Shown here in pieces: positions 3,263 to 52,853 of a stretch of 64,000 bases of DNA. Source of the stretch: an uncultured bacterium (GTDB lineage Bacteria; Vulcanimicrobiota; Xenobia; Xenobiales; Xenobiaceae); the NCBI GenBank assembly GCA_934644775.1, contig CAKUDB010000008.1, positions 10,459 through 74,458 on the forward strand, given 5' to 3'. The translations under genes and the position numbers were made by a program. The notes under the pieces were generated by a model. The model made no database searches and had not been told where the DNA came from. It saw nothing but the letters and a program-made list of their open reading frames with translations. The stretch's first letter is position 1. Each line of letters begins with the position of its first letter.

Positions 3263-4879
3263 ATGATTGGTTATGGCACAACTTTAGAAGGAAATACTCC
3301 AGAGACTTTGTTGCCCCAAGATCTAGTTACCCCTTCATTAACAACCAATCGTTTAATTTTGCTTTGTATAAAAGTTTCTAGAGGGAATGCCGATCCGCGT
3401 GCTTTAGGCATAGTTTTAGAGGCCTACACGAAAGAATTGATTATTTCTAGAGATAATTTTCAAAAGCAAACGGCGACTGTCGCTCAAAGTCCCATTCCGG
3501 CTTTAGCTCAATCGGTTCAAGATGTAATTATTTCATTTGCTCAATATGCCGATATTATAGCCGGAGTGCGTTCTTGGTTTGCTTCTCCAGCTAACTATCC
3601 TTTAGAATCGGCTCCCGAACAAATTTTTGAAGGTTATGCCGAGTTACATAACTGTTTATTAGCTTACGAATGGAATTATCTTTGCCAAGGAGACAATCCC
3701 CATCCAGCTATAAATTTAATGGAAAAAGTTATCCAAGCTACCAAACAAGGAGCTATGGACGATGATAGACTCAGTGAGATCTTTGATCGCCTTTGGGATC
3801 ATTTTGCTAATAGCTTAGATACTTTTGAAAGAGATACCGATTTAGCTAGACGCAATCGCGGTACCGCTGCTATACGCCAAATTATGGCCGGTATCCAGAG
3901 TATGGATACCTATTTTCTCCAGTACGATCTTAACGCCTTAGACGCCGGCTTTATCAAATTTAGTGAAGGTTGCTTGCTATTAGTCGAGCTTATGCAGGAA
4001 AGCACCGGCGAAGCCTTGGCCGATAAGCCCACACCTTCTCCCCAAGTAAACTGGGTTATTCACGCCGCTAGGGCGGTACTTCTCGGACTAGATCCCAAGA
4101 TCTTAGAGCGAGCTCAATCCTGGTTTGAGCCCCAATTAGCCGAAAGCTACTTCCGCTTTGAGCAATGTGCCAACCAAGCCTTGGAAAGTTCTCCCCGTTT
4201 AGCTGAGCAAGTGCCTGTGGCTCGAGATGGTTTCGATCATCTGAACCGCGCTTTGCCCCTCTTGCGTTTAGGCATTAGCCGCCGTCCACTTTTACACAAA
4301 GCTATCCAATATTTGGAAGACGGAGCCAACCTTATTTGCCAAGCCTGGACCGTTTTTACCAAATTTGAAGAAGAAAACAGCAGCATTAGATGTCTACACT
4401 GTGGCTTCGAAAATAAAGCTTACTCTAAAGTTTGCGATCGCTGCGGAGCTCGCTTAGTGCTTCCGGCCAGTTATCAAGATCCGCAAGATGAAGGAGCTAC
4501 GGTGACAAATTATTCGAGCCGAGACGATTCAGAGAATAACGACACTTCAGACCACTTGTCCAGACTTATTGAAGCTTGCGACGCCGCTAAGTTTGGGCGT
4601 ATTGCTAAAGCAGAATTTGTCAGTGTTTTGGCCTGGGGTAAACAGTTACTTCGCTCAGCTTCGGCCAGCTTAAGCAAATTGCCACCTTCTAGCGACGATC
4701 CTAATATTGACAAAGCCCTCCACAGCTTGCACCAAGGTGTAGAAGAATTTAAACAAGGTATAGATGAAATGCAATGGTGGGCCGATACTGGGGCCAATTC
4801 TCACCTGGATATAGCTTCCCATATCCTCTTGCAAGCTTACACCCACTTTGTGGAAGTGCAAGAAATGGCTGGAAACTAA
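3263..4879 (+). CDS. Hypothetical helical-repeat protein with an embedded zinc ribbon (CX2C-X10-CX2C)
   Basis: Long ORF. The zinc ribbon CLHCGFENKAYSKVCDRC is encoded at 4391-4444. The flanking regions are predicted helical and resemble the protein at 58674-59933. Confidence 0.7.
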   Translation: MIGYGTTLEGNTPETLLPQDLVTPSLTTNRLILLCIKVSRGNADPRALGIVLEAYTKELIISRDNFQKQTATVAQSPIPALAQSVQDVIISFAQYADIIAGVRSWFASPANYPLESAPEQIFEGYAELHNCLLAYEWNYLCQGDNPHPAINLMEKVIQATKQGAMDDDRLSEIFDRLWDHFANSLDTFERDTDLARRNRGTAAIRQIMAGIQSMDTYFLQYDLNALDAGFIKFSEGCLLLVELMQESTGEALADKPTPSPQVNWVIHAARAVLLGLDPKILERAQSWFEPQLAESYFRFEQCANQALESSPRLAEQVPVARDGFDHLNRALPLLRLGISRRPLLHKAIQYLEDGANLICQAWTVFTKFEEENSSIRCLHCGFENKAYSKVCDRCGARLVLPASYQDPQDEGATVTNYSSRDDSENNDTSDHLSRLIEACDAAKFGRIAKAEFVSVLAWGKQLLRSASASLSKLPPSSDDPNIDKALHSLHQGVEEFKQGIDEMQWWADTGANSHLDIASHILLQAYTHFVEVQEMAGN

Positions 4880-4920
4880 ATTTAGCCATTTCTTGCCTAC
4901 TATGGGTAGCGGATCGGACG

Positions 4921-5844
4921 TTAATCCTTTACCATTCTGCACCCTAAAGCGATAGAATAGAACTTAGATTCTTCAGAATCGGCTCGACTAGTCAAGACAC
5001 AAGGCACATTGGCTCCAGCTACTATGCCGGCAACTTTAGCTTGAGCCAAAGTTGTACAAGCTTTATAGAAAGCATTGCCAGCTTCTAAGCAATGGAAGAT
5101 AAGTATATCAGCGCTACCTTCGGTAACAGTGGACAGCTTCTTAACTTGGCAACATTGGGGCGAAATGGCTACATCTAAAGCCAGAGGGCCATCTACCAAG
5201 CAAGCACCTAACTGACCACGCTCTCCCATTTTGGCCAAGGCAGCTGCTTCTACACAAGAAGCAATTTTTGGCAATACTTTTTCAGTAGGAGCTATTACGC
5301 CAACTCTAGGAGTTTCTATACCGAAGGAATGGGCTATTTCTACAGTATAGCGAATCATTTTCGCTTTAGTAGCCAAATCGGGAGCCGGAATTATAGCGGC
5401 ATCGCTAGCGAAAAGCAATTGATTATGCAGCTTTTTATATTGGGGGATTTCCAGACAAGTAACGTGGGTCAATACAGCCCCTTTAGGCAAAAGGCTGCGC
5501 TCTTTATCCAAAATTAAGTGCATATACTGATCGGTATTGATCAGCCCCTTCATTAAAACATCGGCCTTGCCTTCAAAAACCATATCGCGAGCGATAACGC
5601 CGGCTCCCCAAGGACTAGCTTCATCTACAATATTAAACAAATCGGAATTTATCGAATATTCTAGACACATCTCCTTTATTTGCTGAGCCTGTCCAACTAA
5701 TATTACTTCAGCGATACCTCTGTCGGCGGCTTGGGCAGCGGCCCTAATAGTACAATGATCGTGACCGGCGGCAACTACCAAACGCTTGAGAGGGTGCCCT
5801 TGTAAACTTTCTACGAGCTGATCTAAACTGCGAATCTGTTCCAA
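4921..5844 (-). CDS. ptb: Phosphate butyryltransferase
   Basis: Full-length similarity to clostridial Ptb (KGLINT, DGPLALDVA, VLTSRADS). The start is moved to the TTG at 5844, which is preceded by GGAGGT with a 6-nt spacer. The track start at 5919 is an upstream TTG with no RBS. Confidence 0.9.
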   Translation of the reverse strand: MEQIRSLDQLVESLQGHPLKRLVVAAGHDHCTIRAAAQAADRGIAEVILVGQAQQIKEMCLEYSINSDLFNIVDEASPWGAGVIARDMVFEGKADVLMKGLINTDQYMHLILDKERSLLPKGAVLTHVTCLEIPQYKKLHNQLLFASDAAIIPAPDLATKAKMIRYTVEIAHSFGIETPRVGVIAPTEKVLPKIASCVEAAALAKMGERGQLGACLVDGPLALDVAISPQCCQVKKLSTVTEGSADILIFHCLEAGNAFYKACTTLAQAKVAGIVAGANVPCVLTSRADSEESKFYSIALGCRMVKD

Positions 5845-28068: not shown

Positions 28069-29484
28069 TTAAGCCGATAATTTTTGAGAGTTTTGGGAGG
28101 CTAACAATTTATCCTTAAGATCTTGGGAGAGCCACCAACCGGCGCAGAACATGGCAAAGATTATACTGCCACCTAAAATAGTTAGTAAGCTTAAAGACCA
28201 CCAAATAGATCTTATACCGTAACCAAAAGTAAAGACCATAGTATAACAAGCTGGTATACGCAATAAAGAGCAAGGGATACTGACACACATAGGAGGCAAA
28301 GTGCGCCCACCACCAGCAAAAACGCCCTCAGCGATACCACATAGGCCTGCAAAAGGCTGAGACCAAGCGATAATTTGCAAATAGCCCACCGCCGTAGTAA
28401 TTACATTCTTATCATTACTAAATAACGAAGCACACAGCTCGGGAAGGGTTAAAAATAATGTACATACAGCGATACTGACACATAAAGCCCAACCCATAGC
28501 CACCCAAGCAATCTTTTTAGCTCTGGCCACTCGTCCTGCTCCCAAATTTTGGCCAATCATAGTAATACAAGCTAAAGAAATACCAGAGCGAATCGTATAA
28601 TTGAGGCTCTCCAATCTGTGACCAATTCCCAAAGCGGCCATAGCTTCAGGGCCAAAATTGCTAATAACTGGGGCTATTGCCATATAGACAATACTAAAGA
28701 CAATAGAAGCTAAAGATAAGGGCAAACCTACAGCAACAACTCTACCTAAATAGTGCCAGTCTATCTTTGCTGCTCTAACTTTGGGTAACATAAAAAGATA
28801 GCCTGGTCGGGTAATCTTTATAATTAACAATATACAAACTACCCCAAAGGAGATATTGGAAGCGATAGCCGCCCCTAGAGCTCCCAATTTAGGTAAACCG
28901 ACTAATCCAAAAATAAATAAGGGATCCAAAATAAAATTCAGTACAAATCCGATAGAATAAATCTTTAAGGGCGTGCGGGTATCTCCATAGGCACGCATAA
29001 CGGCAGAGATACACTCATTGATACATACTGACGGAGCAAAGACGGCCAGCATACCCAAATAAGAATAACCAATATCGATAACTGCTGCAACATCTTCTTT
29101 ATTACCGACCATCCAGCCAAGAATATCGCGACCCCAGAAATATAAAACGACAAATTCCACAAATCCGGTAAAAATTGCCGCCATTAAACTTATTTGCACC
29201 CCTTCCAGGGCTTCTTGAGCTGCTTCCGGCCGTTTAGTCGCTTCTCCAAGTTTATTGGCGATTAAAGAATTGGTGCCGGTAGTGACGATTCCAGAAAGGG
29301 CAAACATAATCCAAATGGCGAAGCTAGACATATTTACAGAAGCTAAAGCCAATACTCCACTATGGCCTACCCAGATAGCATCAACTAAGCTAAACAAAGT
29401 AGAAAGAAACATCGAACCCAAAATAGGAATAGTTAATTTTATAAGAACTTTACTTACTGGGCCGTGCATCAAATCATTTTGCAT
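28069..29484 (-). CDS. MATE family efflux transporter
   Basis: About 12 hydrophobic segments. The N-terminal LIKLTIPILGSMFLSTLFSLVDAIWVG is typical of MatE. Confidence 0.85.
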   Translation of the reverse strand: MQNDLMHGPVSKVLIKLTIPILGSMFLSTLFSLVDAIWVGHSGVLALASVNMSSFAIWIMFALSGIVTTGTNSLIANKLGEATKRPEAAQEALEGVQISLMAAIFTGFVEFVVLYFWGRDILGWMVGNKEDVAAVIDIGYSYLGMLAVFAPSVCINECISAVMRAYGDTRTPLKIYSIGFVLNFILDPLFIFGLVGLPKLGALGAAIASNISFGVVCILLIIKITRPGYLFMLPKVRAAKIDWHYLGRVVAVGLPLSLASIVFSIVYMAIAPVISNFGPEAMAALGIGHRLESLNYTIRSGISLACITMIGQNLGAGRVARAKKIAWVAMGWALCVSIAVCTLFLTLPELCASLFSNDKNVITTAVGYLQIIAWSQPFAGLCGIAEGVFAGGGRTLPPMCVSIPCSLLRIPACYTMVFTFGYGIRSIWWSLSLLTILGGSIIFAMFCAGWWLSQDLKDKLLASQNSQKLSA

Positions 29485-51860: not shown

Positions 51861-52445
51861 ATGAATGACGCTTTAGCATTTTTATGCGAATTTTTAAGGA
51901 AACCGACTCAAGTAGGGGCTATTTATCCTAGCTCGCAGGAACTGGCCAGAGAGATTGTCACTCAAGCCAACGTAGAACAAGCCAAAGTGATCGTTGAGTT
52001 TGGAGCCGGCACAGGCGTATTTACCAGAGAAATTATAAAACGCAAACCCGCAGAAGCCTTTTTTTTCTCTATCGAACAAAATAAATCACTCGTAGAAGTG
52101 CTTAAACGCGAATTACCTGGAACTGATATATGTTGTGATTCGGCAGCAGAGCTTCCCCGCCTTTTGCAAGAGCGCCACCTCCAAAGTGTCGACGCCATAG
52201 TGAGCGGACTCCCTTGGGCGGCTTTTGACGAGCAATTGCAAGATTTACTATTGGCTCCAATTCTGCGATACTTGCAACCCGGAGGCAAATTTGTTACTTT
52301 TGCCTATCTCCAAGGCTTACTGCTGCCAGCAGGCCACAGATTTGCCAAAAAAATCCGCTCAAAATTTGCTAGAGTAGAAAAATCGCGTATAGTTTGGGGT
52401 AATTTACCTCCAGCTTTTGTCTATATTTGCACTAAAGAAAAGTAG
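51861..52445 (+). CDS. Class I SAM-dependent methyltransferase (COG3963-like)
   Basis: FLRKPTQVGAIYPSSQELA followed by VIVEFGAGTGVFTREI (motif I). I prefer the ATG at 51861 over the TTG at 51786. Confidence 0.75.
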   Translation: MNDALAFLCEFLRKPTQVGAIYPSSQELAREIVTQANVEQAKVIVEFGAGTGVFTREIIKRKPAEAFFFSIEQNKSLVEVLKRELPGTDICCDSAAELPRLLQERHLQSVDAIVSGLPWAAFDEQLQDLLLAPILRYLQPGGKFVTFAYLQGLLLPAGHRFAKKIRSKFARVEKSRIVWGNLPPAFVYICTKEK

Positions 52446-52475
52446 CTATAAATTTGCGACCAATATACCATACAT

Positions 52476-52660
52476 AAGAAAAAGCCCTCGCAGTGTCAGT
52501 CGAGGCACAAAACACCACCAGAGCTTTTTTCGTTATAGTTGCGCAGAGGTCGCGGGGTCGACACATTCGCCCGCGTGTCGATGGGTAGCCGCCAGAGGTT
52601 TCACTCCCTGAACAAACTACCAAGTTGGCATTGTTTGTTCGCCCGTGCGCTCCTCTGCCC
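52476..52660 (-). ncRNA. Candidate structured small RNA of unknown class (four-helix junction plus intrinsic terminator)
   Basis: A GC-rich island in AT-rich spacer. Four helices are readable by eye. Two A-C mismatches on the + strand become G-U wobbles on the minus strand. On the minus strand there is a downstream GCCUCG/CGAGGGC hairpin followed by UUUUUCUU, and an upstream TATACT. No ORF with an RBS. Confidence 0.45.
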
Positions 52661-52853
52661 TAACAGTATAACAAAATAACGCCTAAAGTGCTATAGTTTT
52701 AGGCTCTTACCAAGCTATTCAAATAAAAAAATAGTAACGGCAGCAGACATAAATATGAGGGAACAGGAAAGGAACAGGCTTTTAACGTAGTCACCCGAGA
52801 TTGTGGTATCTAATTTTAGATTTGGCAAGTTCAATCTTATGGAGGCCAATTTC

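Follow-up and report, generated by a model that had tools for sequence, protein, structure and literature searches.

RNAs with complex folds of the sort described here have repeatedly proved to be riboswitches, ribozymes or components of ribonucleoproteins. Orphan non-coding RNA motifs, among them the raiA motif and other Breaker/Weinberg candidates, have come from GC-rich islands in AT-rich intergenic regions. Riboswitch-derived RNAs are also found as stand-alone small RNAs, examples being SreA and SreB of Listeria and orphan c-di-GMP-I aptamer transcripts such as the merRNA of Bdellovibrio. We have analysed a GC-rich island in a 64-kb stretch of DNA (referred to here as the window) from the Xenobia, an uncultured group of gut bacteria in the phylum Vulcanimicrobiota (Eremiobacterota). 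A search of the literature on this lineage found nothing on non-coding RNAs.

The RNA that we predict from this island shares with the raiA-type motifs its discovery as a GC island, the presence of several covarying helices, and the invariance of its loops and junctions. It differs from them in that it is not in Rfam 15 and that its sampled distribution is one clade of gut Xenobia. Like SreA, SreB and merRNA, it is predicted to be made as a discrete small RNA, in which an aptamer-like domain is followed by a terminator and no regulated ORF lies downstream, but those RNAs belong to known aptamer classes and the Xenobia RNA matches none. The SAM-I riboswitch (S-box, RF00162) resembles it in size (~100-120 nt), in a closing P1 helix that may lead to a four-way junction, and in a predicted intrinsic terminator placed directly after the domain. 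In one of the two folds considered below (model A), a pseudoknot from the P2 loop to J3/4 would add to this likeness. However, the Xenobia RNA gave no match to the SAM-I covariance model at E<=10, has no K-turn in P2, carries unrelated conserved junction nucleotides, lacks a same-strand gene downstream in most genomes, and has no conserved antiterminator. The likeness to small RNAs of the Hfq/ProQ type consists of a putative promoter of its own, a predicted Rho-independent terminator that ends in a U-tail, the ~180-nt length and perhaps a conserved single-stranded stretch. Unlike in those RNAs, conservation covers the entire 120-nt domain, which has a complex junction, and no complementarity to targets was found in the GGDEF-EAL leader or the start regions of the window.

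Results

Genomic context of the GC-rich island

The spacer that contains the island is 408 bp long, and extends from the stop codon of a methyltransferase gene (52445) to the ATG of a gene encoding a REC-PAS-GGDEF-EAL protein, with both genes on the plus strand (Table 1). The 120-nt domain has a GC content of 0.60 and the surrounding spacer is AT-rich; when measured in 100-nt windows, GC was 0.58-0.59 in the island and 0.35-0.44 in its flanks. ORFs overlap the island on both strands, none of them with a ribosome-binding site (RBS), and the domain is present as a single copy within the window. The gap, the GC island, the ORFs lacking an RBS and four helices had all been listed in the original prediction, and each of these sequence features was found in place.

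Table 1. Positions of the RNA, its predicted elements and neighbouring features. Coordinates are those of the window unless a related locus (L number) is named.
Feature	Position	Strand	Remarks
ORF of 906 aa	48904-51624	minus	no Pfam or PADLOC match
Methyltransferase gene	51861-52445	plus	small class I, SAM-dependent; homologues named phospholipid N-methyltransferase in the sources
Putative intrinsic terminator	52474-52531	minus	hairpin then UUUUUCUU; predicted fold; counterpart in every orthologue
Structured core of the RNA	52539-52658	minus	120 nt; 8 distinct sequences, 20 loci
P1	52652-52658 with 52543-52549	minus	5' strand GCAGAGG, 3' strand CCUCUGC; includes pair 5/113
P1b	52647-52649 with 52551-52553	minus	5' CGC with GCG; includes pair 10/109
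P1c	52642-52644 with 52555-52557	minus	5' GGG with CCC; one G-C to G-U in L024, otherwise invariant
CA-rich segment	52622-52641	minus	CGAACAAACAAUGCCAACUU; 4 substitutions in 8 sequences; bases 52633-52640 are the P2 5' strand in model A
P2	52633-52640 with 52610-52617	minus	GAACAAAC/GUUUGUUC
Long-range helix	52618-52621 with 52584-52587	minus	5' GGUA with 3' UACC; extendable to 52615-52621 with 52584-52590
P3 hairpin	52594-52609	minus	AGGG-AGUGAAAC-CUCU; two more pairs possible, to 52592-52611
P4 hairpin	52558-52581	minus	UCGACACG-CGGGCGAA-UGUGUCGA; loop with invariant GGCGAA
Putative extended -10	52665-52673	minus	TGTTATACT (TGnTATAMT); 6-7 nt before the first helix (P1)
Upstream hairpin	52681-52704		
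Conserved blocks	52780-52838	plus	TTTTAACGTA and ATTTGGCAAGTTCRATCTT
REC-PAS-GGDEF-EAL gene	from 52854	plus	
Inserted paralogues, L003	3657-4782	minus	
Inserted paralogues, L004	3657-5891	minus	
Inserted paralogues, L001	1738-3270	minus	

Conservation and distribution

Orthologues were collected from species-representative genomes, from ENA, Logan and NCBI assemblies and from a metagenome scan; the gut samples that carry these contigs are from baboons or humans (Hadza-type), the DNA runs being SRR30616805, SRR30616829, ERR13966481 and SRR18969901. The domain was present in every close relative recovered, all of them gut Xenobia, and the covariance model (R1) scored 135-148 bits across the 20 loci. 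Identity to the window was 83-98% for the 120-nt core, compared to 47-76% for the spacer between the core and the GGDEF-EAL gene, 62-79% for the GGDEF-EAL coding DNA and 53-80% for the GGDEF-EAL protein, indicating that the RNA core is conserved more strongly than either the neighbouring protein or the spacer. The metagenome scan, performed with three invariant motifs, returned at least 120 loci; among the matches listed, 5 were true, and all of these were near-identical to the L003 type. Collections of plasmids, phages and viral contigs contained no match to the domain.

In the loci that carry it, the domain always adjoins the GGDEF-EAL gene and lies upstream of it. The other flank varies. 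No same-strand gene is found downstream of the RNA in the window, L021, L022, L024 and L026, where the next gene is convergent, and in L001-L005 genes on the minus strand, amounting to 1.5-2.7 kb, are inserted between the RNA terminator and the methyltransferase gene, a feature that is derived and limited to one sub-clade. The suggestion in the original prediction that the RNA could be antisense to the methyltransferase has no support in this comparison, since a predicted terminator intervenes, at least five relatives have 1.5-2.7 kb of other genes in between, and the RNA is linked to the GGDEF-EAL side. The next-closest lineage (L015-L020) has a GGDEF-EAL orthologue of 49% identity, and the domain is absent at that locus; the RNA is therefore not a universal housekeeping RNA. 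It is also absent from several loci of more distant methyltransferase homologues and, among the loci of more distant homologues of the neighbouring genes, from L147-156.

Comparison with known RNA families

A search of the whole window against Rfam 15, which covers 6S, SRP, RNase P, 5S and Y RNAs and all riboswitch and ribozyme classes, gave no match at the gathering score. Permissive searches (E<=10) with 461 nt and 141 nt of the locus and with the orthologue of L026, the most divergent one, returned only unrelated fragments (VrrA, CRISPR-DR10, mir-375 and L31 leader), whose scores of 10-14 bits compare with cut-offs of 33-50. The view that this is a structured RNA with no known family is thus upheld for Rfam 15. 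With ARAGORN, the window yielded neither a tRNA nor a tmRNA gene. The models for SAM-I, SAM-IV and SAM-I/IV (RF00162, RF00634 and RF01725) gave no match even at E<=10, nor did the c-di-GMP models GEMM-I (RF01051) and c-di-GMP-II (RF01786) match, and the RNA is on the strand opposite to the GGDEF-EAL gene. Apparent likenesses to the GUGAAA-type loops of FMN and cobalamin riboswitches and of 5S rRNA, and to the CGCAC-GGGC-AAC stretch of the Vc2 c-di-GMP-I aptamer, failed against the Rfam models and were dropped.

Helices and covariation

The minus-strand fold had an energy of -52.5 kcal/mol and a z-score of -2.86, equalled by 1 of 200 shuffles; the z-score of the plus strand was -1.95. Across the alignment, 300 of the 304 helix cells hold standard pairs when read on the minus strand (21 G-U), compared to 281 of 304 (2 G-U) on the plus strand. 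The original prediction had placed the RNA on the minus strand because at two helix positions, 52596/52607 and 52619/52629, the A-C mismatches of the plus strand turn into G-U pairs when the minus strand is read. Both positions are as described, and the minus-strand reading agrees with the pair counts, with an extended -10 that is conserved, and with a hairpin and U-tract in all orthologues.

Six pairs changed on both sides, one each in P1, P1b, P3 and P4 and two in the long-range helix, in an alignment of 8 distinct sequences from one narrow clade in which L026 supplies most of the compensatory changes and each helix has 1-2 events. Pair 5/113 of P1 goes from A-U to G-U in L022 and to G-C in L024, and pair 10/109 of P1b from C-G to U-G in L024 and to U-A in L026. 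Pair 50/66 of P3 is A-U and becomes G-C in L026; in the same hairpin a G-U is replaced by G-C in L022, and A54G adds a pair in L021 and L093. The P4 hairpin of L026 has U-A in place of C-G at pair 83/98, and its closing G-U is changed to A-U. For the long-range helix, pair 40/74 is U-A in four sequences and C-G in four, and pair 39/75 goes from G-C to A-U in L026. All substitutions in P1, P1b, P1c, P3, P4 and the long-range helix (13/13) keep pairing. The covariation counts were equalled by 0-1 of 500 column shuffles, and by 0 with partners slid by 1-3 columns.

The long-range helix was spotted after inspection of the alignment; an exhaustive scan of all possible 3-5-bp helices, which came later, singled it out as the one helix in which two pairs have changed on both sides. 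P1, P1b, P1c, P2 and P4 are also predicted, independently, by RNAalifold. The long P3 that it also proposes has one break and no compensation, and is replaced here by the long-range helix. An alternative helix between the P1 5' strand and 52592-52597, with one compensatory event and one break, performed no better than shuffles. With regard to the helices that had been read from the window alone, the closing stem, the short hairpin (P3) and the TCGACAC hairpin (P4) covary in relatives, whereas the GAACAAAC/GTTTGTTC helix does not, both of its substitutions being breaks. Nor are the inner pairs that had been proposed for the GAACAAAC hairpin supported, as they break twice and are never compensated; the loop's 3' half (52618-52621) covaries with 52584-52587 instead. 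Invariant bases cluster in the loops and junctions (CGGGCGAAC, GGCGGCU and GGCGAAU), and it is the helices that covary.

Two alternative folds

P2 is the sole helix that the alignment does not support. Its strands are fully complementary in 6 of 8 sequences, and the two substitutions within it both break pairing, giving U-U in L024 and A-C in L026. Two models of the RNA were compared. Model A keeps P2, which results in a four-way junction with an H-type pseudoknot, and has 99.3% of cells paired. Model B opens P2, extends the long-range helix to 7 bp and P3 to 6 bp in a nested three-way junction, and has 100% of 272 cells paired; the CA-rich 20-mer is left single-stranded. All covarying pairs are common to both models, and the pairing of the long-range helix, which covaries, is a pseudoknot if P2 is formed and part of a nested hairpin if P2 is open.

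The nested, three-way model B fits the alignment slightly better than model A, and the four-way reading is uncertain. The two models have similar nearest-neighbour energies, in which pseudoknots are ignored, and RNAfold gives model B as the minimum free energy structure of L026 and an A-like one for each of the remaining sequences. In view of the similar energies, the divided RNAfold predictions and the restriction of breaks to P2, the RNA may be bistable, with P2 either closed or open, an idea that draws on two uncompensated substitutions and on energies that take no account of pseudoknots.

Predicted promoter, terminator and transcript

The TATACT at 52665-52670, noted in the original prediction as a candidate -10, is present, and the TG that precedes it (52672-52673) makes it part of an extended -10 conserved across orthologues. 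TGnTATAMT is the sole invariant block of the spacer across 7 orthologues, and the perfect TGnTATAAT is found in L021 and L026, the two most divergent. As a motif the -10 is not rare (4 in the window vs 4.9 expected), and the weight that we give to it therefore comes from conservation and fixed position rather than from rarity. A second TGTTATACT, at 28240, is inside a coding gene and was discounted. Transcription would start at about 52658-52661. Another hairpin that had been pointed out further upstream (Table 1) is kept in the closest relatives and is not conserved beyond them.

The downstream hairpin and UUUUUCUU of the original prediction (52476-52506) are also present, nested inside a longer hairpin. 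In the same place and on the same strand, a stable hairpin followed by a U-tract is seen in all orthologues, the hairpin sequences being unrelated. The linker between the core and the terminator is short (5-20 nt), A/U-rich and variable between orthologues. In the window and several relatives, the hairpin of the terminator lies between an A-tract and a T-tract. Since the A-tract is on the 5' side of the terminator, the convergent methyltransferase transcript may be stopped there too, so that a single terminator may act on this mRNA as well as on the sRNA. The predicted transcript would run from about 52658 to about 52476, a length of ~180 nt, with the structured domain at its extreme 5' end. 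Judged from sequence, the locus has the make-up of a stand-alone sRNA gene, with its own putative promoter, an intrinsic terminator and no conserved ORF.

Discussion

The computed evidence describes a structured RNA gene on the minus strand, and we consider it highly probable that this gene is real. Transcription from the conserved extended -10 would start at about 52658-52661, and the first 120 nt (52658 down to 52539) would fold into a compact multi-helix domain. The long, interrupted closing stem formed by P1, P1b and P1c would lead into a junction with P4, P3 and the long-range helix, and the variable A/U-rich linker and the intrinsic terminator would end the ~180-nt transcript. In the mechanism that we propose, the function of the RNA would lie in its three-dimensional fold, which would bind a protein or small molecule, and it would not serve as a simple antisense RNA or cis-regulatory element. 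The fold may have two states. In one, the CA-rich segment would be locked in P2 (GAACAAAC/GUUUGUUC), giving the four-way junction and H-type pseudoknot; in the other, P2 would be open, the long-range helix and P3 each extended, and the CA-rich segment single-stranded. Invariant loops and junctions combined with covarying stems form the pattern of tertiary-structure RNAs, and for this reason a role that depends on the fold is favoured. We hold the whole statement, that is, the structured RNA gene together with action through its fold and possibly two states, to be rather probable; the mechanism taken by itself is tentative at best.

It would be safest to regard the RNA as an orphan structured sRNA that belongs to a new family, narrowly distributed in gut Xenobia. 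A bolder reading, which we put forward as a doubtful one, is that the RNA belongs to a new class of sensing RNAs, in which a bistable P2 switch, set by a small molecule or a protein, would expose or hide the CA-rich 20-nt strand. Such an RNA would regulate in trans in the manner of a riboswitch, with an aptamer not described before, which is likewise doubtful. A metabolite or second messenger is plausible as a ligand, given the fixed place of the RNA beside the REC-PAS-GGDEF-EAL gene and a SAM-dependent methyltransferase gene. The computations that we ran identified no ligand, protein partner or target. If the RNA does sense a ligand or bind a protein, it would represent a new RNA class and provide a handle on regulation in a lineage that has not yet been grown; if it is a lineage-specific sRNA, it would still be a clean and testable addition to RNA family databases.

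Alternative explanations

The RNA could instead be an orphan riboswitch or other cis-regulator, in which an aptamer controls read-through of the terminator into the region downstream on the minus strand. Its output would be an antisense RNA against the phospholipid N-methyltransferase in the window, and the inserted paralogous genes in L001-L005. As would suit such a regulator, an aptamer-like junction is found 7-20 nt ahead of a predicted intrinsic terminator, and in at least five relatives same-strand genes do lie 230-350 nt downstream. The pseudoknot model has the topology of SAM-I, in that a four-way junction is combined with a contact between the P2 loop and J3/4, and the convergent gene encodes a SAM-dependent methyltransferase. 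Antisense RNAs under riboswitch control exist, as in the case of the S-box in Clostridium acetobutylicum and the B12 riboswitch in Listeria. However, no conserved antiterminator could be recognised: on inspection, the linker and terminator arms differ completely between orthologues, do not overlap with the P1 3' strand, and share no alternative pairing with P1 of the kind expected of a terminating riboswitch. SAM-I riboswitches have a conserved core sequence and stand in the 5' leaders of methionine, cysteine or SAM genes, and in the window no same-strand gene follows the RNA and the methyltransferase gene is convergent. The next gene is also convergent in L021, L022, L024 and L026, and the hairpin in between looks bidirectional. 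The inserted genes are a derived trait seen in a single sub-clade, it is the GGDEF-EAL side rather than the methyltransferase side to which the RNA remains linked, and none of the three SAM models was matched at the permissive threshold. We regard a riboswitch of this type as unlikely.

Equally unlikely, in our judgement, is a trans-acting base-pairing sRNA in which the CA-rich segment serves as the seed for G/U-rich sites in mRNAs and the rest of the molecule as a scaffold. The segment is nearly invariant and is single-stranded in the best-fitting nested model, and the RNA has its own putative promoter and a terminator with a U-tail, as expected for such an sRNA. Nevertheless, the best duplex among 330 candidate start regions of the window had an energy of -17.4 kcal/mol, compared to a mean best of -16.5 kcal/mol for shuffled seeds, and pairing with the 5' region of the adjacent GGDEF-EAL gene had a z-score of about 0. 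The whole 120 nt is conserved, including loops and junctions far from the seed, which is unusual for sRNAs composed of a seed and a scaffold. UGCCAA matches 6 nt of the conserved TTTGGCA in the GGDEF-EAL leader, but pairing there was rejected, as the match shows no covariation and is lost in L024.

A plus-strand element, either a riboswitch in the 5' leader of the GGDEF-EAL gene (for example, one that senses c-di-GMP) or a structure in the 3'-UTR of the methyltransferase mRNA, is very improbable. The domain is always upstream of the GGDEF-EAL gene, the leaders of c-di-GMP turnover genes are a classic location for riboswitches, and L026 has two substitutions that, on the plus strand, give G-U pairs. 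Set against this, 23 of the 304 helix cells are mismatched on that strand vs 4 on the minus strand, and three more invariant U-G pairs become A-C if model B is used. The terminator-like hairpin is immediately upstream on the plus strand, with no conserved promoter left; 195-245 nt of unconserved spacer separate the domain from the start codon; and neither GEMM-I nor c-di-GMP-II was matched.

It is scarcely credible that the island is not an RNA at all, and represents a small protein gene, a conserved site in the DNA, the remnant of a mobile element or a GC island that arose by chance. Although ORFs cross it on both strands, they have no RBS and their frames are broken by a frameshifting 1-nt insertion in L021 and by in-frame stops in L024, which rules out coding. 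The substitutions are compensatory for RNA helices, and a repeat or mobile element was rejected since the window holds a single copy and searches of plasmids, phages and viral contigs gave no match.

Other features of the locus

Two short sequences each occur twice in the RNA. GGGCGAA is found at positions 15-21, in the junction, and at 87-93, in the P4 loop. ACCUCUG(G/C) is found at positions 60-67, in the P3 3' strand, and at 109-116, in the P1 3' strand, and with these two copies the P1 5' strand could pair with either, the covariation for the alternative being not significant.

The two blocks TTTTAACGTA and ATTTGGCAAGTTCRATCTT lie between the putative sRNA promoter and the start codon of the GGDEF-EAL gene. 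They are kept in orthologues of at least ~72% protein identity (altered in L024 and L157) and are not kept in L021 and L026; this gene probably has its promoter or leader there. Two relatives, L158 (1391-3211) and L159 (825-2645), have a 606-aa variant of the signalling protein, a REC-GGDEF-EAL with no PAS family on record; the sRNA core of both is identical to the L003 type.

The inserted genes in five species-level relatives are 1-3 tandem paralogues that encode proteins of 216-249 aa starting with MPVREKSYLT... or MNMPY..., and match no Pfam or PADLOC family. Since the copy number of these paralogues varies between genomes, the 3' flank of the RNA gene is a variable spot. The position of the 906-aa ORF upstream of the methyltransferase gene is kept in L021, L022 and L024, where the orthologues are 929-988 aa long and likewise have no recorded family. 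Public labels of the relatives are inconsistent, with 'UBP9' or 'Candidatus Riflebacteria' used for L001 and L002 and Candidatus Bruticola (Xenobiaceae, Vulcanimicrobiota) for orthologous NCBI loci. The close relatives of the flanking genes are metagenome-assembled genomes from the gut, among which the label 'uncultured bacterium' is also in use. In L021, the phospholipid N-methyltransferase-like gene is tandemly duplicated (4359-5610), the two copies encoding proteins of 202 and 193 aa.
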